Of a stretch of DNA of 64,000 bases, positions 1,653 through 63,678 are shown one piece after another. The stretch lies in sequence record NC_028780.1; one strand, given 5' to 3'. This stretch comes from Escherichia phage slur07. The translations under genes were made by a program, and so were the position numbers. The notes below the pieces were generated by a model. That model did no database searches. It was not told where the DNA came from and worked only from the letters and a program-made list of their open reading frames with translations. Every line of letters begins with the position of its first letter. Within the stretch, counting starts at the first letter, position 1.

Positions 1653-1940
1653 TTTATTGGAGATTCACTGCCTTAGTGTGAGCTAAATCGAGGAGCCGTC
1701 GAACTGTCTGATTAATGATTCGCAAATCATTATAGTTTTAAGACCCCGGCAGTTTTACGGTGTACCTCTTGAATGTTACTATCATGCGTCAGAAAAGTGT
1801 TATCTGTGTAAGTCTTGGTGGTATGATGACGAGGTTTATGGTTATCCTGTCGGTAAATATTCAAAACCTAAGTACCCCCTTGAGGGCTTGCGCAGGCAAT
1901 GCCAATAAGTCCTGCATTTTCATTTAAAAGAGAATTTATA

Positions 1941-2117
1941 ATGGCAAAACAAGTTAAAGCAAAGAAAGCAGTTGAAAAGAAAGTTGGTGATTCTAAACGC
2001 GCTGGCTACAAGCGTGGGTCGAACTCTCGTATCAATCAAACTGTTGAGAAGATCATGCGCCGAGCACGTGCGGTTCTTCGAGATGATGCTTCTCGTTTTG
2101 GTAAGCAGAAAGCATAA
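1941..2117 (+). CDS. small lysine/arginine-rich protein (58 aa), possible nucleic-acid binder
   Basis: ATG at 1941 (longer ORF from 1899 possible); very basic composition; followed by intrinsic terminator. Confidence 0.5.
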   Translation: MAKQVKAKKAVEKKVGDSKRAGYKRGSNSRINQTVEKIMRRARAVLRDDASRFGKQKA

Positions 2118-2120
2118 GTT

Positions 2121-2146
2121 GAGGACTCCTTCGGGAGTCCTTTTTT
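2121..2146 (+). terminator. intrinsic terminator (GGACTCC-TTCG-GGAGTCC plus T-run)
   Basis: Perfect 7 bp stem, tetraloop, TTTTTT. Confidence 0.7.
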
Positions 2147-2170
2147 ATTTTCCAAAGATTGCATAAAGTT

Positions 2171-2200
2171 GTTTACAGTATAGCTCCTTTGTGATAGTAT
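2171..2200 (+). promoter_or_regulatory. T4-type early promoter (GTTTAC -35, TAGTAT -10)
   Basis: GTTTAC then ~18 nt then TAGTAT; RBS and ATG 2228 downstream. Confidence 0.5.
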
Positions 2201-2227
2201 TATCTTACACAAACAAAGGAGAATAAA

Positions 2228-2560
2228 ATGAAAACGATTAATCTGAACGCTGCAGTTAAAACTAAATGCTTCAATGGTAAATATGATGAAACTATGTGGT
2301 TCTTAATGGCAGTTGAAGGTGATATTATTGAAGTAGAAACAACAGAAGGTATGGGAACAGATTTCACCTTTACAATTCAAGTTCATAATTTCTTTACTGG
2401 TTGGATTTATGAATTGAATACAGTAATCGTTGGAAAAATTGAACAAAATGAATTAGGCGAATGGCATTATGTTACAGCTCGCCAACGTGCAGAACGCTTA
2501 ATTGAGAAGATGAAAAAAGTTGGTAAACTTGACATGCAGCATTGGAAAGTAGTAAAATAA
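2228..2560 (+). CDS. hypothetical early protein (110 aa)
   Basis: ORF with AAGGAG RBS; conserved GGAGAATAAAATGAA initiation cassette. Confidence 0.6.
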   Translation: MKTINLNAAVKTKCFNGKYDETMWFLMAVEGDIIEVETTEGMGTDFTFTIQVHNFFTGWIYELNTVIVGKIEQNELGEWHYVTARQRAERLIEKMKKVGKLDMQHWKVVK

Positions 2561-2562
2561 TT

Positions 2563-2591
2563 GTTTACTTTGGTACAGGATATGATATTAT
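2563..2591 (+). promoter_or_regulatory. T4-type early promoter with stem-loop (GTTTAC / TATTAT; GGTACAGG...CCTGTACC inverted repeat)
   Basis: GTTTAC, 17 nt spacer, TATTAT; 8 bp inverted repeat brackets the -10 region. Confidence 0.5.
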
Positions 2592-2627
2592 ATACCTGTA
2601 CCGCAATTAAACATCTTGGAGAATAAA

Positions 2628-2993
2628 ATGAACTACATCAACTTTGAACGTAAATATGTTTCTAATGGTATTGCAGGTTCTATTGATACTATTTGCCTCT
2701 GGAAACATCAAAACGGATCAGTATGCGAAATTGAACAGTATATGACTCCTAACTACGTTTATATGCGATTTGAAAACGGTATCACGGTTTCAATCACGAT
2801 GGAAGGTTCCAACTTCAAAATCGCTCTGGATGATGATTTCCGTCAACGCGATTTAGGGACTCATCCTTGCTGGAATGGTGCTAATCGTAAACTCTTAGTT
2901 AAAACTTGGATTCGTCATATTCTGAGTAACAGAGCTAAACCTGAGCATCTTGAAGCAATCTTTGATGTAGTTCTTAACGAATTTGATATTTAA
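2628..2993 (+). CDS. hypothetical early protein (121 aa)
   Basis: ATG 2628 preceded by GGAG; track ORF from 2616 uses a TTG start. Confidence 0.6.
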   Translation: MNYINFERKYVSNGIAGSIDTICLWKHQNGSVCEIEQYMTPNYVYMRFENGITVSITMEGSNFKIALDDDFRQRDLGTHPCWNGANRKLLVKTWIRHILSNRAKPEHLEAIFDVVLNEFDI

Positions 2994-3033
2994 AATAAAA
3001 TAAAGGGCTTCGGTCCCTATTGAGGAAAATATT

Positions 3034-3321
3034 ATGTTTATGACTACTTATTTTGATACCCGCAAAAATTTCTGTGAAGTTGTTTTCTCAAAGGCACCTA
3101 AAGACCTTCCTGCACATTTGCAACCTACTAGCGAATCGATTAAAAACTACGTTGATGTGGTTTGTCCTTTAGAATTCCGTACAGTAAATGGGCGTGATAC
3201 TTTAGCTATCACTAAACTCAATCGCGAAATTGACATTGACCCTTCAATTGCGCGTGAAATTAACATTTCTGATATTGGCGGCGGTAATGTTAAATCGCAC
3301 GGTTTTCAGATGAGGTTCTAA
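3034..3321 (+). CDS. hypothetical early protein (95 aa)
   Basis: ORF in tightly packed same-strand array. Confidence 0.55.
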   Translation: MFMTTYFDTRKNFCEVVFSKAPKDLPAHLQPTSESIKNYVDVVCPLEFRTVNGRDTLAITKLNREIDIDPSIAREINISDIGGGNVKSHGFQMRF

Positions 3322-3518
3322 TGAAATTCTTTTTAGGTCAAACTGTTGAATTAAAGGGAGTTGGTATACCTGGATTAATTTCTAAGGTTCTACCTCCATT
3401 TAAATGGAGTGGTATTCAAATAAAAGAGGCTTATATTGTTTCCTGGGTAGATGGAAATGAAGACCTTCGTATGGGTGATGAATTATCTCCTATCTACGGA
3501 TTAAAGGAATTAGTATGA
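3321..3518 (+). CDS. hypothetical early protein (65 aa)
   Basis: Start overlaps previous stop (ATGA). Confidence 0.5.
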   Translation: MKFFLGQTVELKGVGIPGLISKVLPPFKWSGIQIKEAYIVSWVDGNEDLRMGDELSPIYGLKELV

Positions 3519-9062: not shown

Positions 9063-11120
9063 ATGGAACTTATTACAGAATTATTTGACGGCGCTTCGGC
9101 GCCGGTTGTTAACTTAAATCCTAAGCATAAAATACCACAAATTTTTGCTATCCAAGCCGGCGAAGAAAGCGTGCTTCCTGGATTTAGATTTTGTACATAC
9201 ACCTCTGGTGGTGATACAAATAAAAACGTTAAGCCAGGCGATAAAATGATGCATATCGTAATGATAGGTGTCAATGAGAAACTATCATTAGTTAAGCTTA
9301 AAAACTTGGGTGGAAATCCAATTGGTGTCATTAATGCCGTTTTTGATACTGCTCTTCAAACAATGAAACAGTATAAAATCGACGCATGCCTATTCCGCGT
9401 ACTAAAGAGTAAAACAAATGGCGCAGCTCGTCAAATGCAAGTTATTGCTGACCGTTTAGTACGTACTAAAGGAGCAGGTCGATATGTTCTCTTAAAGGAA
9501 ATCTGGGACTATGATAAGAAATATGCATATATTATGGTTTACCGTAAAAATGCCAATTTAGAAGACATTCCAGGTGTACCTCCTATTTCAACTGAGTTAT
9601 TCACAAAAGTTGAATCAAAGGTTGGTGATGTTTATGTAGACGTTAAAACAGGTAATGCTGTTCCTAAAGCTGTCGCTGTTGCTGCTTCTATTGCTTTAGA
9701 AAATGATAAGCGCACTGATCAAGCTGTTATTCAGAAAACTAAAATTAGTCGTCGATTAGCAGCACAAGCTCAATATTCTACTGTTGATGCTTCACTTCAG
9801 GGTGATAGCTTCGCTGCCAAGAAATATCAAGAGTTTGAATCTAAAGTTCCGGTATATAAAGCAGAAGGACCAATGAACTCTGGCGTTATCCAGATTGGTT
9901 CAAACTTCAGCAAAGGAGCTATCGGTGGTATGAGAAGTGCTTCTCGTTTTAAATCTAATGATTATGAACTAGAAAGTTTCCGAAATCATATTGCATTGAC
10001 CCATGCACGTTTACGCGATCCATCTATCAAGCTGCAGAGCGATATAACATATCAAGGTTCTCAAGAATATTTAAAGAATAAAGAATTCTTTGATTATAAA
10101 ACTGATAAAATTTTAAGCGATCTTGCTGACATTAATATTTCTAATAGCTTTGATGTTATTAAGAAAATTATCAATGATTTAGTTAAAGATTCTAAAGCTA
10201 CATCAGATGAAAAGACAGCTATTATTCAATTTGTAATGAATGGCATTTATAAATTGATTAATGAATCTGCTGCTCAGGCATATGAATACGCAAGCACCGA
10301 AGTAACTCCAAAAGGACTGACTCAGGCTGAATCTGATGTAATTGAAGATTATTGTGCAGATTCATATGTTGAAATGAACTCGTTCCTTTTGGGTAAACCA
10401 GATTCTACCCGTGAAGAATACATGGAAAGAGCTATTAATCACATCGAGACGTTAGATTCTGCCTTTGCCAAAGGATCAGTTCTTCCTCCAGGAACTACAC
10501 TTTACCGTGGACAAGAAGTTACCTTTAAAACTTTGCGTCATAACATTGAAAACAAAATGTTCTATTTCAAGAACTTCGTATCGACATCACTTAAACCAAA
10601 TATCTTCGGTGAGCATGGTAAAAACTATATGGCTCTAGATGATTCCGGCGCAGTATTTTCTGGCGAAGGAGAAGGTTCCGTTGATGCAGAAGATTTAATG
10701 CATATGGGTAGTCATTCTACATATGCCAATGAAGATGCTGAAACTAGCGTAGGTATGGTAATTAAAGGGGCTGAGCGAATCAAAGTTATCGTTCCAGGTC
10801 ATTTATCAGGATTTCCATCAGAAGCTGAAGTTATTCTACCACGTGGAATTTTACTGAAGATTAATAAAGTAAGTACGTACTTTATGAAAGAAACTGCTTA
10901 TAACAAGTATCTAATCGAAGGTACAATCGTTCCTCCTTCTGAACAATTAGAGGAATCGGTATATGATGGCGACCATTTAATGGAAACTGGTGAAGTTCGT
11001 CCAATGGCTGGATTTAATCAATTCCTTGTAGAAGAATCAAAAGAAGAGGAAAACGAAGTTTCTCAAATCTTGGCTTCTTTGGTTAACATCAACGGAATGT
11101 CTAAAAAGTTCAAAATGTAG
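9063..11120 (+). CDS. Alt-like ADP-ribosyltransferase paralog
   Basis: 685 aa, starts 3 nt after alt stop; shares MELITELFD N-terminus, QTMKQYKIDAC, and C-terminal YRGQ / FVSTSL / SEAEVILPRG motifs; central ~200 aa divergent. Confidence 0.85.
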   Translation: MELITELFDGASAPVVNLNPKHKIPQIFAIQAGEESVLPGFRFCTYTSGGDTNKNVKPGDKMMHIVMIGVNEKLSLVKLKNLGGNPIGVINAVFDTALQTMKQYKIDACLFRVLKSKTNGAARQMQVIADRLVRTKGAGRYVLLKEIWDYDKKYAYIMVYRKNANLEDIPGVPPISTELFTKVESKVGDVYVDVKTGNAVPKAVAVAASIALENDKRTDQAVIQKTKISRRLAAQAQYSTVDASLQGDSFAAKKYQEFESKVPVYKAEGPMNSGVIQIGSNFSKGAIGGMRSASRFKSNDYELESFRNHIALTHARLRDPSIKLQSDITYQGSQEYLKNKEFFDYKTDKILSDLADINISNSFDVIKKIINDLVKDSKATSDEKTAIIQFVMNGIYKLINESAAQAYEYASTEVTPKGLTQAESDVIEDYCADSYVEMNSFLLGKPDSTREEYMERAINHIETLDSAFAKGSVLPPGTTLYRGQEVTFKTLRHNIENKMFYFKNFVSTSLKPNIFGEHGKNYMALDDSGAVFSGEGEGSVDAEDLMHMGSHSTYANEDAETSVGMVIKGAERIKVIVPGHLSGFPSEAEVILPRGILLKINKVSTYFMKETAYNKYLIEGTIVPPSEQLEESVYDGDHLMETGEVRPMAGFNQFLVEESKEEENEVSQILASLVNINGMSKKFKM

Positions 11121-11180
11121 TTTACAAGTCCCTCGTGTTGTGTTATAGTAGTCTTACTGACATAACATGAGGAACACAAA

Positions 11181-11471
11181 ATGAAATCTTCTTTACGCTT
11201 TTTAGGTCAAGAACTTGTAGTTGAAGGCGTTATTCCTGTTGATAATGCTTTTAATGAAGCAGTTTACGATGAATTTATTAAAATTTTTGGAACAGATAAA
11301 AAGTTCGGAATTTTTCCTTCTGAAAATTTTTCAAAGCCAGAACAGACTGAAAGTATTTTTCAGGGTGTAGTAACAGGTAAATTTGAGTCAGAAGCTCCGG
11401 TAAAAATTGAAGTTTATATTGAAGACAGTTTAGTTGCTTCAGTTTCTGCTTTCATTTCATTCCGTAAATAA
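11181..11471 (+). CDS. hypothetical protein (96 aa)
   Basis: ORF with GAGGAA RBS; followed by bidirectional terminator. Confidence 0.5.
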   Translation: MKSSLRFLGQELVVEGVIPVDNAFNEAVYDEFIKIFGTDKKFGIFPSENFSKPEQTESIFQGVVTGKFESEAPVKIEVYIEDSLVASVSAFISFRK

Positions 11472-57004: not shown

Positions 57005-57535
57005 ATGTCGCAAGCTCTGCAACAAATTTTTAACCAAGCAAATACAACTAACTTTGTAGTATCAATACCACATAGTAATACTACATCTGCTTTTACTTTA
57101 AATGCTCAGTCAGTTCCTATTCCAGGAATTAGAATACCTGTTACTGATACTGTGACTGGGCCGTTTGGACTGGGCCGAGCACAACGTCCAGGTGTTACAT
57201 TTGAGTATGATCCACTCATTGTGAGATTTATAGTTGATGAAGAACTTAAGTCGTGGATAGGAATGTATGAATGGATGCTAGGAACTAGCAACTATCTTAC
57301 AGGTGAAAATACTGCCCAAAAAACAGGTCCTGAATACATTACGCTTTACATCTTAGATAATAGCAAAACTGAAATCGTGATGTCAATAAATTTTTATAAG
57401 CCTTGGGTTTCTGACCTATCTGAAGTAGAATTTAGCTACACAGAAGATTCAGACCCGGCTTTAGTATGTACTGCAACGATTCCTTACACATATTTTCAAG
57501 TAGAAAAAGATGGAAAAATTATAGCAGAAGTTTAA
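57005..57535 (+). CDS. 3: tail completion / sheath stabiliser protein
   Basis: ORF from 56924; start placed at Met giving recalled 176 aa of T4 gp3. Confidence 0.8.
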   Translation: MSQALQQIFNQANTTNFVVSIPHSNTTSAFTLNAQSVPIPGIRIPVTDTVTGPFGLGRAQRPGVTFEYDPLIVRFIVDEELKSWIGMYEWMLGTSNYLTGENTAQKTGPEYITLYILDNSKTEIVMSINFYKPWVSDLSEVEFSYTEDSDPALVCTATIPYTYFQVEKDGKIIAEV

Positions 57536-57584
57536 TGCTTCAGTTTTGTGTGTTATAATCTTAATTAAATTTGAGGAGAAACAC

Positions 57585-59016: not shown

Positions 59017-59051
59017 GTTGTTTACATGGGGTTTTAGTAGTGATACTATTA
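59017..59051 (+). promoter_or_regulatory. early promoter / stem-loop cassette (GTTTAC ... TGATACTAT within GGGTA...TACCC)
   Basis: GTTTAC -35, 17 nt spacer, extended -10; 24 nt identical to copy at 59331. Confidence 0.5.
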
Positions 59052-59067
59052 CCCTATCAAAACAAAT

Positions 59068-59319
59068 GTGAAATTGGAGAACAAAATGAAAACGTATCAA
59101 GAATTTATTGCTGAAACTGCTGATGTAAAAGTTGAGTTTATTTACACTGGCAAGAAAGATAAAATGGGTGAAATGCCTCATGGAGTTCTTCGTGATGCAT
59201 TAGATGATTTCGGTCAACTCGGTGGTGAAGAGTTTGGCGATTACTTTGTTATCTATGGCCCGGCAAAAGTCATTGAGAAATGGGCTGATAAATATAAATC
59301 AATTTTTCGTAAAAAATAA
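59068..59319 (+). CDS. candidate capsid-targeted internal protein (IP-like, 83 aa)
   Basis: N-terminus MKTYQEFIAE matches recalled capsid-targeting sequence ending in an I-A-E gp21-type cleavage site. Confidence 0.7.
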   Translation: MKLENKMKTYQEFIAETADVKVEFIYTGKKDKMGEMPHGVLRDALDDFGQLGGEEFGDYFVIYGPAKVIEKWADKYKSIFRKK

Positions 59320-59320
59320 G

Positions 59321-59355
59321 TTTACTTTTAGATAGGGTAGTGATACTATTACCCT
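59321..59355 (+). promoter_or_regulatory. early promoter / stem-loop cassette, second copy
   Basis: GTTTAC + 17 nt + TGATACTAT; shares GTAGTGATACTATTACCCTATCAA with 59017 cassette. Confidence 0.5.
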
Positions 59356-59377
59356 ATCAACTACCGAGGAGAATAAA

Positions 59378-59563
59378 ATGAAACGTTGTGAATTAATTCG
59401 AAATGTTGCTATTGCAATTTCTGCTTCTGCATTTAGTTTTTCAATGTTTGTTGGATTTATATGCGGATTATTGACTACAGCAGAAAATGTATTTTCACTT
59501 GTAGTAGCATTTTTAATTGGTTTAATTGCTATCGTTATGGATAAAATTTCTAAAGGTGAATAG
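59378..59563 (+). CDS. small hydrophobic membrane protein (61 aa, two predicted TM helices)
   Basis: Strongly hydrophobic; GGAGAATAAAATGAA initiation cassette. Confidence 0.55.
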   Translation: MKRCELIRNVAIAISASAFSFSMFVGFICGLLTTAENVFSLVVAFLIGLIAIVMDKISKGE

Positions 59564-60842: not shown

Positions 60843-60915
60843 TGGGAATTAGCCAAGTTGGTAAGGCACTGGATTTTGATTCCAGGATGCAAAGGTTCGA
60901 GTCCTTTATTCCCAG
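60843..60915 (+). tRNA. tRNA-Gln (anticodon UUG)
   Basis: Cloverleaf: acceptor TGGGAAT/ATTCCCA, anticodon stem CTGGA/TCCAG with loop TTTTGAT, GGTTCGAGTCC T-loop. Confidence 0.85.
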
Positions 60916-60916
60916 C

Positions 60917-61003
60917 GCGAGAATGGTCAAATTGGTAAAGGCACAGCACTTAAAATGCTGCGGAATGATTTCCTTGTGGGTTCGAGTCCCACTTCTCGCA
61001 CCA
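60917..61003 (+). tRNA. tRNA-Leu (anticodon UAA), long variable arm
   Basis: Acceptor GCGAGAA/TTCTCGC, anticodon loop CTTAAAA, T-loop GGTTCGAGTCC, encoded CCA. Confidence 0.85.
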
Positions 61004-61008
61004 AATTT

Positions 61009-61082
<74 letters not shown>

Positions 61083-61086
61083 ATTT

Positions 61087-61737
61087 ATGACTCGTCGTGA
61101 GACGCTCAGTTCTTTATTAGGGACTGATATGCATTTTTATCTTTATAAAATAACAAATAAAATTAATAATAAAATTTATATTGGTGTGCATTCTACCGAA
61201 AATTTAGATGATGGATATATGGGTTCTGGTAAATTATTAAAAAGAGCCCAAGATAAATATTGTATAGAAAATTTTTCTAAAGAAATATTAGAGTATTTTG
61301 ACGATAAAGAATCTATGCTTGAAGCCGAGAAAAATATTGTCACAGAAGAGTTTTTAAATAGACCAGATGTGTATAATTTAAAACTTGGAGGTGAAGGTGG
61401 ATGGGATCATATAAATAATTATCCTATGACAGATCAGCAACGCGAATTAATTTCATTGGGTGTTAAAAAGGCACATTCTAACGGAAAATTAAAAGGATGG
61501 TCTTCAAATGGATTAATGAAGAATGGCTTTGCTGGTAAAACTCATTCTCAAGAAGCTAAACGTAAAATAGCAAAAGCAAACGAAGCAAAAGTTTCTGCGG
61601 ATGAAAGAAAAAGAAGAATAGAAATTTCTAAATTATATGATTTTTCTAAACGTGGCGAATTGTCTAAATATGCTAAGCATATTGGCGTAAGTCATACTCA
61701 AGCAAAAAGAATTCTAAATCAAATTAACAATATATAA
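61087..61737 (+). CDS. segB: GIY-YIG homing endonuclease embedded in tRNA cluster
   Basis: ORF between tRNA-Gly and tRNA-Ser; FYLYKITNKINNKIYIGVHS GIY-YIG module and DDGYMGSGK shared with segE; start may be ATG 61129. Confidence 0.82.
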   Translation: MTRRETLSSLLGTDMHFYLYKITNKINNKIYIGVHSTENLDDGYMGSGKLLKRAQDKYCIENFSKEILEYFDDKESMLEAEKNIVTEEFLNRPDVYNLKLGGEGGWDHINNYPMTDQQRELISLGVKKAHSNGKLKGWSSNGLMKNGFAGKTHSQEAKRKIAKANEAKVSADERKRRIEISKLYDFSKRGELSKYAKHIGVSHTQAKRILNQINNI

Positions 61738-61743
61738 ATATTT

Positions 61744-61833
61744 GGAGGCGTGGCAGAGTGGTTTAATGCACCGGTCTTGAAAACCGGCAGTCGCTCCGGC
61801 GACTCATAGGTTCAAATCCTATCGCCTCCGCCA
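61744..61833 (+). tRNA. tRNA-Ser (anticodon UGA), long variable arm
   Basis: Acceptor GGAGGCG/CGCCTCC, anticodon stem CCGGT/ACCGG with loop CTTGAAA, T-loop GGTTCAAATCC, CCA. Confidence 0.85.
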
Positions 61834-61839
61834 GTTTTT

Positions 61840-61915
61840 GCTGATTTAGCTCAGTAGGTAGAGCACCTCACTTGTAATGAGGACGTCGGCGGTTCGATTC
61901 CGTCAATCAGCACCA
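61840..61915 (+). tRNA. tRNA-Thr (anticodon UGU)
   Basis: Acceptor GCTGATT/AATCAGC, anticodon loop CTTGTAA, T-loop GGTTCGATTCC, CCA. Confidence 0.85.
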
Positions 61916-61916
61916 A

Positions 61917-61991
61917 GGCCCTGTAGCTGGAAGGTTCAAGCAAGCGACTCATAATCGCCAGATGGTGGTTCAATTCCACCCAGGGCCACCA
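61917..61991 (+). tRNA. tRNA with CAU anticodon (Ile-lysidine type or Met)
   Basis: Acceptor GGCCCTG/CAGGGCC, anticodon loop CTCATAA, T-loop GGTTCAATTCC, CCA. Confidence 0.8.
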
Positions 61992-62003
61992 AATTATGAA
62001 TTA

Positions 62004-62090
62004 GGGGAGTTATCCCGTAGAGGTAGCGGTGTGGACTGTAAATTCATTGTCATTGCGACTCGGGTGGTTCGACTCCACCACTCCCCACCA
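62004..62090 (+). tRNA. tRNA-Tyr (anticodon GUA), long variable arm
   Basis: Acceptor GGGGAGT/ACTCCCC; anticodon loop CTGTAAA; variable arm GTCATTGCGAC resembles bacterial tRNA-Tyr; T-loop GGTTCGACTCC, CCA. Confidence 0.7.
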
Positions 62091-62094
62091 ATTT

Positions 62095-62169
62095 GGATGT
62101 GTAGCTCAATGGCAGAGCGATCGCCTGTTAAGCGATTGGTTATAGGTTCGAATCCTATCACGTCCGCCA
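62095..62169 (+). tRNA. tRNA-Asn (anticodon GUU)
   Basis: Acceptor GGATGTG/CACGTCC, anticodon stem ATCGC/GCGAT with loop CTGTTAA, T-loop GGTTCGAATCC, CCA. Confidence 0.75.
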
Positions 62170-62173
62170 AATA

Positions 62174-62249
62174 CGAGGCATAGCTCAGAAGGAAGAGCAA
62201 GGACCTTCTAAGTCCTGGGTCGTAGGTTCGATCCCTACTGCCTCGACCA
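62174..62249 (+). tRNA. tRNA-Arg (anticodon UCU)
   Basis: Acceptor CGAGGCA/TGCCTCG, anticodon stem AGGAC/GTCCT with loop CTTCTAA, T-loop GGTTCGATCCC, CCA. Confidence 0.85.
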
Positions 62250-62565
62250 GACAAGAAGCCGGGTCGCTACCGGCAAGTCGTCGGACTGATGTTCCCTGTT
62301 TAAGGACTGGCATTAATAAATCTTTATGTTTTGTTAATGCCCCCTTATATCACAGCAGAAACGGCGCACCGAATTATCGATTCGAGGAAATATCTTTGCC
62401 ATAAGCCGAGTAGCGTTTTTGACGGAACGTTCGGATATGGTCGAGATATGGCCTTTTAAAAATATTGAGTAGCGTCAACTACTTAATAACCGGGTTCGAA
62501 TCCCGGCGTTTCGTACAAACACTTGCCTTAGCAGGTGGAACCCCGACAAGGTTGCCGCAAGGCTT
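62250..62565 (+). ncRNA. structured non-coding region after tRNA-Arg: candidate small stable RNAs or degenerate tRNA
   Basis: No credible ORF; tRNA-like T-arm CCGGGTTCGAATCCCGG at ~62490; 8 bp inverted repeat GGCATTAA...TTAATGCC at ~62309-62341; ends at intrinsic terminator. Confidence 0.35.
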
Positions 62566-62593
62566 AGCCCCGACCGAAAGGTTGGGGCTTTTT
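62566..62593 (+). terminator. intrinsic terminator (AGCCCCGACC-GAAA-GGTTGGGGCT plus TTTT)
   Basis: 10 bp stem, tetraloop, T-run; near-identical copy at 63125. Confidence 0.75.
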
Positions 62594-62643
62594 AGTATAA
62601 ATATAGTAGTATATTAAATCCACGAATTAAAACAGGAAATAAG

Positions 62644-63117
62644 ATGAAATCATATGCTCAATTTTTAAATGAAGCGGTGTTAAATGAAGCATCTAGCACC
62701 GAAATTCAAGCTGTCGCAAAAGCAGCCATTGCAGCGGGTAAATATTCCTATAAAGATGCTTCTGACGAATCACGATTCCAATTTGCTCGCGACATGAAAG
62801 CAGAAGGATTTACGGGAAATGCAGTTAGTATGGCCTGGAAAAGTTTAGTTGCTACTGGCGCTGCTTTTGCAAAGGCTTCGGGTAAACCTGCTCCTAAAGC
62901 AGATCCTAAAGTCACACAAGAGAAAAATATCGTTAAAGGAATTATCTCCAGATATGAAGCTATCCTTAAAGAGCTTTTAGTAATCAAAACTGAAGGTCAA
63001 AAGTTAGCTCGTGCTTATAGTTTCAAAGATAATCCACATGCTCATGACCTAGAGTATGTTGAAGACATCCAAAAAATTATTAAAGACCGCATTTGGTCTG
63101 CTAAACAAATCAAATAA
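62644..63117 (+). CDS. hypothetical protein with capsid-targeting-like N-terminus (157 aa)
   Basis: N-terminus MKSYAQFLNEAVLNEA resembles the MKTYQEFIAE internal-protein leader; Ala/Lys-rich; flanked by twin terminators. Confidence 0.6.
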   Translation: MKSYAQFLNEAVLNEASSTEIQAVAKAAIAAGKYSYKDASDESRFQFARDMKAEGFTGNAVSMAWKSLVATGAAFAKASGKPAPKADPKVTQEKNIVKGIISRYEAILKELLVIKTEGQKLARAYSFKDNPHAHDLEYVEDIQKIIKDRIWSAKQIK

Positions 63118-63124
63118 CATTCTT

Positions 63125-63152
63125 AGCCCCGACCAAAAGGTTGGGGCTTTTT
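63125..63152 (+). terminator. intrinsic terminator, second copy (loop AAAA)
   Basis: Same stem as 62566-62593, T-run. Confidence 0.75.
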
Positions 63153-63287
63153 GGTATCTAGGCCTTTCCGGGCCTCTCTAGGCATCATTTAGTTTATACC
63201 CTTTATAATATATTATCCTACCTTTTAATTGCCCCTCCTGACCCTAGAATTCCCTAAAACTTTTTAAAAATTTTTTCACAAAACTGT

Positions 63288-63322
63288 TTACATCCCTGTT
63301 CTTCCATGGTACTATACAACTA
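63288..63322 (+). promoter_or_regulatory. T4-type early promoter (GTTTAC ... TGGTACTAT)
   Basis: GTTTAC, 17 nt spacer, extended -10. Confidence 0.45.
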
Positions 63323-63358: not shown

Positions 63359-63623
63359 AATGGATAATTACGGCGAACTGTTCAACTTCTTTATGAAATG
63401 CGTTTCAGAAGATTTCGGTCGTACAGTGAATGATATTAAAGTTATCGGTCCTGACCATCCGATGTTTGAAACCTACGCAGTAATGGGTAATGAAGATGGT
63501 CAGTGGTATACTGTAAAAGTTGTGATTAATATGTTCACAGCTGAAAGTTATGTTAAACTGTCTTCTAAAGTTTACCACGATAACGACGAAATCGCAGAAG
63601 AATATTTCAATAATATGAAATAA
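63359..63623 (+). CDS. hypothetical early protein (88 aa)
   Basis: ATG 63359 with GGAGAATGAAATGG initiation context; track ORF from 63306 is likely over-extended. Confidence 0.55.
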
Positions 63624-63656
63624 GTTTACACAGGCTCATGATTGAGATATTATGAG
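63624..63656 (+). promoter_or_regulatory. early promoter within stem-loop (GTTTAC; GGCTCAT...ATGAGCC around TATTAT)
   Basis: GTTTAC, 17 nt, ATATTAT; 7 bp inverted repeat enclosing the -10. Confidence 0.45.
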
Positions 63657-63678
63657 CCTGTAACTTGAGGAGAACATT

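Follow-up and report, generated by a model that had tools for sequence, protein, structure and literature searches.

Probable early-promoter cassettes in Escherichia phage slur07 and the exchange of small accessory genes

The 64,000-nt stretch of DNA analysed here (the window; Escherichia phage slur07, NC_028780.1) originates from a Tequatrovirus (T4-like) genome and contains seven copies of a promoter module in front of small genes. We consider it highly probable that these repeated motifs are T4-type early promoters held in compact intergenic cassettes that shuffle open reading frames (ORFs). The first-pass annotation had described early promoters with stem-loops bracketing small accessory ORFs, and this core reading is correct. 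All six of its GTTTAC sites are present, with the initial G at 2171, 2563, 59020, 59320, 63286 and 63624; the third, fourth and fifth had been read as 59017, 59321 and 63288, a shift of 1-3 nt. The genes downstream are 30.8, 30.7, an internal-protein gene at the ipI locus, trna.4, e.8 and e.7. A seventh module, absent from that list, lies at 11120, 5' of alt.-3. All seven are intergenic and on the plus (early-gene) strand, with a start codon 19-60 nt downstream, and the downstream products have 61-121 aa.

GTTTAC at -36..-31, containing the -35 element TTTAC[A/T], is exact in all seven modules and is the -35 signature of T4 early promoters (Nolan 2006, PMC1524935). Among the six originally listed sites, 17 nt separate GTTTAC from the -10 hexamer at 2563 and 18 nt do so everywhere else, in agreement with the 17-18 nt first proposed; in the sigma-70 convention, with TTTACW as the -35 element, these spacers become 16 and 17 nt, and the modules carry a -10 TAnnnT 16-17 nt after TTTACW. 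The extended -10 elements are TGTGATAGTAT, TATGATATTAT, TAGTGATACTAT (twice), ATGGTACTAT, TGAGATATTAT and TGTGTTATAGT; the T4 early -10 consensus is TGTG(A/G)TA(C/T)(A/T)AT (bioRxiv 2024.04.04.588121), and the PeSL (promoter-early stem-loop) consensus of PST/T4 is TTTACW-N17-TAYWAT (Comeau 2014, PMC4122927). On a qualitative judgement, the 12 nt 5' of the -35 element are A/T-rich (e.g. AAAAATAA, AAAATAATT, TTTTTAAAAATTTTTTCACAAAAC), which fits an UP element.

The pattern GTTTAC-N16-19-TANNNT has nine matches in the window, all on the plus strand, against 3.39 expected; two of 100 shuffles give nine. Scanning both strands with a PWM built from the modules revealed no further site in the window. 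Generic sigma-70 scans, which are uninformative in this AT-rich genome, were not enriched (28 hits for 30.7 expected, 32 for 27.1), and the relaxed two-hexamer pattern TTTACW-N16-18-TAYWAT, at 11 or more of 12 matches, gave 18 and 9 hits for 16.9 and 15.5 expected. Because the hexamer scans remain at chance level, the signal sits in the extended T4-specific consensus and in position, not in the hexamers alone. The T4 early promoters, or PE class, are reportedly the subject of work by Liebig and Rueger in 1989 and by Miller et al. in 2003. A T4 site identical to the 30.8 promoter is annotated as 'early promoter' in X54536.1; the T4 records AF158101.6 and NC_000866.4 hold no promoter features. 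The T4 genes 30.8, 30.7, e.8, e.7, ipI and trna.4 give early RNA, and for the 30.8 orthologue early protein is also recorded (PMC9697503 supplement). In T4 coordinates, the predicted +1 positions of the six originally listed sites correspond to about 130274, 129883, 73903, 73536, 70660 and 70322.

The first two modules belong to the 30.9-30.5 region, over which T4 and the window are 98.6% identical. The features there are:

2121..2148, plus strand: intrinsic terminator after 30.9, GAGGACTCC-TTCG-GGAGTCCTT, then a T-run
2171..2200, plus strand: early promoter of 30.8, GTTTAC(A), extended -10 TGTGATAGTAT, predicted +1 at about 2207
2184..2221, plus strand: long-range stem at 30.8, in which the spacer CUCCUUUGU (2184-2192) pairs with ACAAAGGAG (2213-2221)
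2218..2232, plus strand: SD GGAG of 30.8 within a perfect RegB/S1 site, GGAGAATAAAA, overlapping the 30.8 ATG
2228-2560, plus strand: 30.8 (Pfam Phage_30_8)
2563..2603, plus strand: early promoter of 30.7, GTTTAC, -10 TATTAT at 2586-2591, predicted +1 at about 2598
2618..2632, plus strand: SD/RegB site of 30.7, GGAGAATAAAA, with the 30.7 ATG
2628-2993, plus strand: 30.7 (Pfam Phage_T4_Gp30_7)

The terminator after 30.9 has a 9-bp stem with five GC pairs, followed by the T-run (fold -17.1 kcal/mol, z -3.4). The long-range stem at 30.8 (-14.6 kcal/mol, z -2.9) uses the SD/RegB site as its 3' arm and, because its 5' arm lies upstream of +1, would be restricted to read-through RNA. An anti-SD sequence in the promoter spacer is present at 30.8 only and was rejected as a general feature. 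A literature search on 30.7 and 30.8 returned no relevant paper. The genes 30.9 to 30.6 keep their order across genera, out to Dhakavirus JS98, and exchange in this region is one of alleles, not of gene content: in phage A2, T4-like flanks enclose a 30.8 allele of the JK45 type, and the junctions lie at GGAGAATAAAATGAAAA and GTTTACTTTGGTACAGG.

An identical 15-nt sequence at three gene starts had been described as an initiation cassette, in keeping with modular shuffling. The match is exact (GGAGAATAAAATGAA at 2218, 2618 and 59368), and with up to two mismatches there are nine hits against 0.53 expected. The sequence is, however, the optimal RegB/S1 site GGAGAAUAAAA, a target of the phage endoribonuclease RegB, fused to ATG; as 13 of its 15 bases are dictated by this optimum and the start codon, its identity reflects function and not common descent. 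Efficient cleavage by RegB needs GGAGAAUAAAA, within the consensus GGAGRAYARAA (Durand 2006, PMC1702504). This consensus is matched perfectly four times in the window (0.44 expected), three times by the optimum itself, and each match overlaps the SD and ATG of the gene directly after an early-promoter module. Sites with at most one mismatch precede five of the seven module genes (30.8, 30.7 and trna.4 with GGAGAAUAAAA, the ip gene with GGAGAACAAAA, and e.8 with one mismatch) and none of the other plus-strand genes in a crude gene call, which lists 22 and misses some real genes. The sites of e.7 and alt.-3 have two mismatches each (e.7 by eye). In predicted folds the RegB sites at 2618 and 59368 are unpaired, and that at 59076 lies in a weak 3-bp stem that is absent or reduced in the centroid; the site at 2218 is paired in the model of read-through RNA and free in RNA starting at about 2207. 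The regB gene lies outside the window (62279-62740 in T4) and is found at full length and at least 95% identity in 500 phage records, a number that covers essentially all Tequatrovirus.

That function alone can make sequences alike also bears on the modules as a whole. They could be landmarks of shuffling and not its agents, resembling each other through independent constraints on promoter and ribosome-binding site (RBS), with viable breaks simply falling between genes. The composition of the 15-mer speaks for this explanation, as do the modules at 2171 and 2563, which have little in common beyond the consensus, and the synteny from 30.9 to 30.6 that is kept as far as JS98. We nevertheless regard it as unlikely, given the structure of the junctions at the ip locus, where the window contains the following features:

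59020..59057, plus strand: early promoter of the ip-locus gene, GTTTAC, TAGTGATACTAT, predicted +1 at about 59056
59076..59319, plus strand: RegB-consensus SD GGAGAACAAAA and 77-aa internal virion protein (phrog_8111)
59320..59358, plus strand: trna.4 early promoter, predicted +1 at about 59356; 12-bp hairpin (59331-59358) around the -10
59368..59563, plus strand: SD/RegB site GGAGAATAAAA and trna.4 (61 aa, predicted membrane protein)

The internal virion protein of 77 aa, encoded at 59086-59319 and with the N-terminus MKTYQEFIAE, occupies the place of T4 ipI, and its neighbour 57B is Acb1. From 57B to trna.4, the ip locus has no gene in PTE-Eco15, one in the window and in T4, two in Solly and in IME340, and four in VEc74, and in the compared phages each gene of the locus is bracketed by the module. 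The 59320 module is a 41-nt direct repeat of the 59020 module at 80% identity. Direct repeats of 41 nt and 16 nt, spaced 300 nt apart, were observed among the modules. The junctions argue against mere convergence and survivorship: they join the left and right halves of different module variants within an invariant core, GTGATACTAT; inserted genes are flanked by direct repeats of 30-41 nt that reach into the upstream coding sequence; and PTE-Eco15 has one fused module precisely where the other phages hold one to four genes. The extra ip gene of Solly, for example, is flanked by the 30-nt direct repeat GATTTAAAATAATTTCACAAAGTTGTTTAC, which includes the final three codons of the upstream gene together with its stop. 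In RB49/phi1, moreover, excised mini-circles formed by recombination between neighbouring PeSL cassettes have been demonstrated physically, and only there (PMC2839356).

Agency of the cassettes in shuffling thus remains the preferred reading, and the remaining modules can be compared with it. Their features are:

11120..11149, plus strand: early-promoter module of alt.-3; a stop codon TAG overlaps GTTTAC; -10 TGTGTTATAGT; predicted +1 at about 11156
11181-11471, plus strand: alt.-3, downstream of the 11120 module
62563-62598: first copy of a 36-nt direct repeat
63125..63153, plus strand: intrinsic terminator 5' of the e.8 promoter, second copy of the 36-nt direct repeat
63286..63315, plus strand: early promoter of e.8, GTTTAC, GGTACTAT, predicted +1 at about 63322, no hairpin
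63350, plus strand: e.8 SD GGAGAATGAAA, one mismatch to the RegB consensus
63360-63623, plus strand: e.8
63624..63661, plus strand: e.7 early promoter, abutting the stop codon of e.8, predicted +1 at about 63660
from 63679 past the window end, plus strand: e.7

An IP-like ORF at 62644-63117 lies between the two terminator copies. Near e.7, which is present or replaced in relatives, synteny breaks exactly at 63623/63624, between the e.8 stop codon and GTTTAC, and at alt.-3 the junction between relatives coincides with the 11120 module, which has neither a hairpin nor a RegB consensus. No junction of gain, loss or replacement was seen at 63286 among the relatives compared. Modules therefore coincide with gain, loss or replacement breakpoints at the ip locus, at the e.8|e.7 boundary, at 30.8 (in A2) and at alt.-3, as had been anticipated. 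The comparison was confined to module-bearing gaps, and junctions in intergenic DNA are partly expected through survivorship alone.

Most -10 hexamers had been placed inside inverted repeats. A significant hairpin encloses the -10 at four of the six sites, namely 2563, 59020, 59320 and 63624 (z -3.9 to -6.9 against dinucleotide shuffles), but not at 2171 or 63286; at these two sites and at 11120 folding gives no local hairpin. The individual structures are 2571-2584/2589-2603 at 30.7 (z -4.9 to -5.0), 59026-59057 at the ip gene (z -3.85), that of trna.4 (z -4.4) and, at e.7, a 13-bp stem formed by 63630-63642 and 63649-63661 (z -6.5 to -6.9). Among the ip-locus modules of six phages, 14 of 16 fold significantly, and an Rfam search returned tRNAs only, with no match at the hairpins. 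The 3' arm ends at about the predicted +1 (1-5 nt past it); since the hairpin spans the -10 and ends there, its formation is limited to read-through RNA. All of these stems lack a U-tract and are thus not canonical intrinsic terminators. The T4 record X04567.1 annotates -10 boxes 5' of ipIII, ipII, denV and regB as lying within stem-loops, which it names as terminators of the upstream gene.

It is very unlikely, in our view, that the hairpins are functionless by-products of a partly palindromic early -10 consensus (TAGTGATACTA) combined with complementarity that arose by chance or by hitch-hiking. The consensus itself does supply the 4-5 apical pairs at the ip locus, a hairpin is missing from three of the seven window modules, and the recombinant modules VEc74_3 and IME340_2 persist after losing theirs. 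The outer arms, however, lie outside the consensus and vary between variants yet stay paired; there are two pairing registers (GGGTTTTAGTA... and ...GATAGGGTA, both with TACCCTAT); a Klebsiella phage variant has gained one pair (GGGTT/AACCC); the 30.7 hairpin is unchanged from T4 to JS98 while its flanks diverge; and z-scores reach -6.9.

Action of the inverted repeats in DNA is a different proposal, in which a cruciform or single-strand hairpin promotes recombination or endonuclease VII cutting, or a dimeric protein binds to shut off early promoters. The repeats straddle the -10, where a repressor or structural change has its greatest effect, the shut-off of early promoters is described as 'not completely understood' (PMC3014915), and a stem-loop-binding recombination protein was the subject of speculation by Arbiol 2010 (PMC2839356). 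The arms differ from site to site (GGTACAGG, TAGGGTA, GATGAGGTA, ACAGGCTCAT), and a common operator, or protein-binding palindrome, was rejected on this basis. Stems with up to four G.U pairs, the inner ones deriving from the promoter consensus, and the fact that 15 of 17 distinct modules fold better as sense than as antisense strand (by a mean of 3.9 kcal/mol, in related sequences) fit RNA and not a two-strand cruciform. We regard action in DNA as highly improbable.

The description of each small early ORF as a self-contained expression unit was overstated. Besides the lack of a U-tract in the hairpins, a canonical terminator is found upstream of 30.8 and e.8 alone, 25-140 nt before the promoters at 2171 and 63286; none precedes the promoter at 11120. 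Furthermore, 30.7 is followed by 30.6 to 30, which are separated by short gaps or none and lack promoter modules of their own. With three of seven modules lacking a hairpin and two of seven lacking a good RegB site, promoter, hairpin and RegB site are frequent companions and not an obligatory unit. The suggestion that the ORFs carry anti-defence functions has only indirect support, and this for the 77-aa internal virion protein, as T4 Ip1-3 are GmrSD inhibitors; it is the only one of the six products for which a known function was found, and the other five give the suggestion no support.

Taken together, each cassette combines A/T-rich upstream DNA with GTTTAC at -36..-31 and an extended -10 (TGTG-R-TA-Y-W-AT), and its consensus match and the T4 data suggest use by unmodified host sigma-70 RNA polymerase in the first minutes after infection. 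Four of the seven cassettes have a predicted hairpin, built from the spacer and the bases that directly follow the -10; RNA from the cassette's own promoter would lack it, and read-through RNA would carry it. By analogy with the PeSLs of RB49/phi1, this hairpin in slur07 most likely attenuates, pauses or 3'-stabilises upstream transcripts. In five of the seven the RBS bases match the RegB target within one mismatch, and cleavage there would switch the early message off minutes later. Cassettes sharing 20-45 nt of near-identical sequence could serve as substrates for homologous recombination, and recombination between two of them would insert, delete or swap the intervening ORF, an outcome seen in the comparison with relatives.

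A coupled 'cut-and-cap' device of hairpin and RegB site is an extension that we consider quite unlikely. The RegB site lies 7-19 nt past the hairpin end at +1, and a RegB cut of read-through RNA might leave the upstream cistron with an exonuclease-blocking 3' hairpin while inactivating the downstream cistron. Arms that tolerate G.U pairing, for instance GAUGGGGUA with its ability to pair with either 3'-arm variant, would preserve the cap when cassette variants recombine. If this were true, each cassette would have an independent mRNA lifetime, and the PeSL concept of 'terminator plus promoter' would widen to a RegB-linked post-transcriptional insulator.

Raw sequence alone suffices to reconstruct how T4 early genes are regulated, along with the logic of T-even accessory-gene cassettes, in which the swapped genes include injected anti-restriction proteins. 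As annotation landmarks, the modules show where early transcription units lie, allow RegB-sensitive messages to be predicted and indicate likely slots for new ip-type or other accessory genes in new Tequatrovirus genomes. The pattern is accurate but already known: it is the PeSL and T-even IP-locus shuffling described by Repoila (1994), Arbiol (2010) and Comeau (2014). Promoters of this kind, and structures with the -10 in a stem-loop, were annotated earlier still, in T4 GenBank entries of about 1986-1990, so that the description spans literature and records from 1986 to 2014. For phage biology there is nothing new in it: early promoters, -10 stem-loops, RegB sites and PeSL-mediated shuffling are all published.

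The promoters show no substantive difference from T4 early promoters, with which they share GTTTAC at -36..-31, the extended TGn/-10 and the A/T-rich UP region (PMC1524935; Hinton 2010, PMC2988021), as well as their position on the early strand, immediately 5' of early genes, with orthologous sites in T4; the window phage shows point substitutions in the spacers and another ip gene after the 59020 promoter. As in known RegB/S1 targets, GGAGAAUAAAA is identical to the stated optimum and lies, intergenic, in the SD region of early genes (PMC1702504; Uzan & Miller 2010, PMC3014915). Pairing protects such targets against RegB, and in read-through RNA the predicted fold pairs the 30.8 site.

PeSL cassettes (Arbiol 2010, PMC2839356; Comeau 2014, PMC4122927) likewise repeat an early promoter and stem-loop 5' of small ORFs in hyperplastic regions, at junctions of insertion, deletion and replacement, and in a phi1 subclass the stem overlaps the -10 as in the window. 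The RB49/phi1 stems consist of a G-run and a C-run and terminate transcription, with termination or attenuation demonstrated for phi1 PeSL211/210 by a lacZ reporter, whereas the window stems are AT-richer and have no U-tract; the PST figure legend (PMC4122927) places the stems upstream of the promoter. The elements of the T-even IP locus have been called 'analogs, not homologs' of PeSLs (Arbiol 2010, PMC2839356). As far as that locus is described in the accounts of Repoila 1994 given in PMC2839356 and PMC12373910, it shares with the window a 57B-trna.4 interval in which the number of ip genes varies, a conserved N-terminal packaging sequence and a conserved flanking promoter and stem-loop. To that extent there is no difference, and the window represents a further allele combination, with one 77-aa IP and the IP-like ORF at 62644. 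Lambdoid morons and integron cassettes, an analogy drawn by Arbiol 2010, are also single accessory genes exchanged as units with their own expression signals. In contrast to these, the window modules have no integrase or attC-type site and would rely on general homologous recombination between promoter cassettes, and their genes are sense-oriented inside early transcription units.

Over window positions 1900-3400, identity is 98.6% with phage T4 (reverse complement of NC_000866 129079-130581) and 99.8% with Escherichia phage vB_Eco_CP; the T4 early-transcription strand corresponds to the window + strand. The modules noted in the first-pass annotation, each an early promoter often carrying a hairpin around its -10 element, are confirmed. 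All six are present, with the G of GTTTAC at 2171, 2563, 59020, 59320, 63286 and 63624; three of the original coordinates were exact and three shifted by 1-3 nt. They lie upstream of these genes:

2228-2560, + strand: 30.8; the upstream intergenic space is part of the region first described (2160-2635)
2628-2993, + strand: 30.7; the upstream intergenic space is part of the same region
59086-59319, + strand: internal-protein gene in the ipI slot
59378-59563, + strand: trna.4
63360-63623, + strand: e.8
from 63679, + strand: e.7

The pattern GTTTAC-N16-19-TANNNT occurs nine times in the window against 3.39 expected, always on the + strand. A position matrix made from the modules and run on both strands recovers the cited sites with a 17-nt spacer and one extra site at 11120, with no match on the - strand. 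Scanning the window for generic sigma-70 promoters, or for a looser pair of hexamers, gave chance-level results, and the evidence therefore lies in the extended consensus and in placement between stop and start codons. At 11120, a module absent from the first-pass list, the stop codon TAG overlaps GTTTAC upstream of alt.-3; this module (11120-11180) follows an Alt-like ADP-ribosyltransferase gene.

In T4, the published early -35 signature is GTTTAC at -36 to -31 (PMC1524935), and the early -10 is TGTG(A/G)TA(C/T)(A/T)AT (bioRxiv 2024.04.04.588121). Such promoters are described as combining UP, -35, TGn and -10 sequences and out-competing host promoters (PMC2988021). The T4 orthologue of window 2171-2200 is annotated 'early promoter' in GenBank X54536.1. 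RNA and protein of T4 30.8, 30.7, e.8 and e.7 are early, trna.4 RNA is early, and ipI has early RNA but late protein (PMC9697503 supplement). We infer that transcription initiates at the predicted promoters of this phage. A separate element that departs from the GTTTAC module, TTTAAT-N17-TATAAT preceded by TGTGTGT (57531-57559), sits some 25 nt before the start of gene 1 (57585); it is possibly a middle promoter or a weak early one.

The annotation also placed the -10 of most modules inside an inverted repeat, which holds at 2563, 59020, 59320 and 63624 (hairpin z -3.9 to -6.9); folding found no hairpin around the -10 at 2171, 63286 or 11120. With GTTTAC set at -36, the predicted +1 positions are ~2207, 2598, 59056, 59356, 63322 and 63660. 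The four hairpins extend 1-5 nt beyond +1, to 2603, 59057, 59358 and 63661, so RNA from a module's own promoter cannot fold them; they can form only in read-through RNA started upstream or in single-stranded DNA. None is followed by a U-tract, and the canonical terminators at 2121 and 63125 are separate elements. The 30.8 promoter has no local hairpin; its spacer CUCCUUUGU (2184-2192) is predicted to pair over 9 bp (z -2.9) with the Shine-Dalgarno/RegB site ACAAAGGAG (2213-2221), one pair being changed to G.U in T4. This pairing would be possible solely in read-through RNA, where it would mask ribosome binding and cutting by the phage endoribonuclease RegB.

The sense-strand fold is stabler than the antisense fold in 15 of 17 distinct modules, which favours a role at the RNA level, although these sequences are related and their inner G.U pairs come from the promoter consensus. 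Action of the repeats as DNA or as a protein operator is unlikely, given that the arm sequences differ between sites and use G.U pairs. A lack of any function fits poorly with pairing maintained in two registers and with a 30.7 promoter-hairpin invariant across genera, as far as Dhakavirus JS98.

The identical 15-mer GGAGAATAAAATGAA occurs exactly at 2218, 2618 and 59368, as first reported. Its first 11 nt are the optimal RegB site, the final A of which opens the ATG, and AA comes after the start codon; RegB cuts were mapped in T4 by Durand et al. 2006 (PMC1702504). Four matches to the RegB consensus lie in the window, where 0.44 would be expected, and each falls in a Shine-Dalgarno region directly 3' of a module. 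Allowing at most one mismatch, the site precedes five of seven module genes; it precedes none of the remaining + strand genes in a crude gene call that listed 22 and missed some real genes. The regB gene lies outside the window, nearby (T4 62279-62740), and is full-length at no less than 95% identity in 500 phage records, essentially the whole genus set. In T4 30.7 (L001, the T4 locus, ~3215-3230; window 2618-2630) an additional A separates the Shine-Dalgarno sequence from ATG (GGAGAATAAAAATG); hence T4 30.8 and 30.7 share the 11-nt optimum but not the exact 15-mer. The identity is thus explained by function and is not itself evidence of common descent. It is doubtful that a hairpin ending at +1 and a RegB site 7-19 nt downstream jointly cap the upstream message upon RegB cutting, an idea for which we found no counterpart in the cited literature.

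Modules coincide with synteny breakpoints at the ip locus, at e.8/e.7 and at the 30.8 allele of Shigella phage A2, junctions having been scored at module-bearing gaps. Between 57B and trna.4 there is no gene in PTE-Eco15, one in the window and in T4 (ipI, different from the window's), two in Solly and IME340, and four in VEc74, with the same module before and after every gene. Junctions could simply survive between genes, the modules playing no part. Against this as the whole story stand hybrid modules, direct repeats flanking inserted genes and published mini-circles formed by such cassettes (Arbiol et al. 2010; PMC2839356). Alignment of the 16 modules shows a mosaic in which a small number of left-half variants and of right-half variants meet at the invariant core GTGATACTAT; the two that have lost folding are left/right hybrids. 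Solly's additional gene is bracketed by a 30-nt direct repeat, GATTTAAAATAATTTCACAAAGTTGTTTAC, that takes in the upstream gene's final three codons and stop codon. In Klebsiella phage Roth80 (L013 1470-1545) the same module (TTTCACAAAGTTGTTTACA...GTAGTGATACTAT...GGAGAATAAAATGAAACGTTGTGAATTAAT) lies between the homologues of 57B and trna.4, with 93% identity over 73 nt and its stem altered to GGGTT/AACCC; megablast matched no other part of the query.

Past the stop codon of e.8, one module and e.7 follow in the window, T4 and PTE-Eco15. Solly, VEc74 and IME340 have a different module and small ORF, followed by e.7 in Solly and directly by the e.6 module in the other two; similarity breaks precisely at 63623/63624. 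Gene order across 2160-2635 is kept as far as JS98. In A2 (L009 2267-2846; window 2160-2700) a divergent JK45-type 30.8 allele (369 nt versus 333 nt) lies between T4-like flanks, with junctions GGAGAATAAAATGAAAA and GTTTACTTTGGTACAGG; JS98, of another genus, has the T4-type allele, so 30.8 alleles do not track phylogeny. For the 11120 module, similarity to a subset of relatives starts at window 11101, breaking off 20 nt upstream of it, and a single phage matches nothing but the 54-nt module.

Two copies of a terminator, AGCCCCGACCnAAAGGTTGGGGCTTTTT, form a 36-nt direct repeat of 94% identity (62563-62598 and 63122-63157) around ORF 62644-63117, a 157-aa internal-protein-like product (N-terminus MKSYAQFLNEA, phrog_2280). 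The aligned T4 stretch just upstream of the e.8 promoter has a single copy and no such ORF; from this arrangement, the ORF looks like a cassette insertion via terminator repeats, not promoter modules. An eight-tRNA gene cluster (60843-62246) is split by a 216-aa ORF (61087-61737) in the T4 position of the homing endonuclease gene segB, and the tRNA set and adjoining ORFs vary among the relatives examined.

The module-gene products fit the label 'accessory': the 77-aa ORF (59086-59319) falls in a family of internal virion proteins, and the rest in families of unknown function. The 57B product is Acb1 (Pfam PF23474), and T4 Ip1, Ip2 and Ip3 are inhibitors of GmrSD type IV restriction enzymes, with a different enzyme for each (PMC12373910). 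The first-pass interpretation is essentially right, with the corrections given above, among them that the 15-mer reflects the RegB site and is not in itself a sign of cassette shuffling.

All important points on the modules are already published, and their interest is therefore low. The modules are the promoter-early stem-loop (PeSL) concept. Arbiol et al. 2010 described repeated early promoter and stem-loop cassettes, one subclass with the stem overlapping the -10, upstream of ORFans in hyperplastic regions, where they mediate insertion, deletion and replacement (PMC2839356). The authors credit Repoila et al. 1994 with such elements at T-even IP loci, built on early promoters of T4 and having AT-rich stems that are weaker. 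Comeau et al. 2014 widened the concept to the PST/T4 pair (PMC4122927), and their 'degraded 1/2 PeSLs' resemble a tandem half-module, AATAGTTTATAAACCGTTTAC, in two relatives (L005 6948-6966, L007 6626-6644), where a degenerate -35 lies immediately 5' of an intact one. The window modules with the -10 within inverted repeats share their architecture with sites upstream of ipIII, ipII, denV and regB in T4 record X04567.1, where the repeats carry the label 'potential transcription terminator', referring to the gene upstream.
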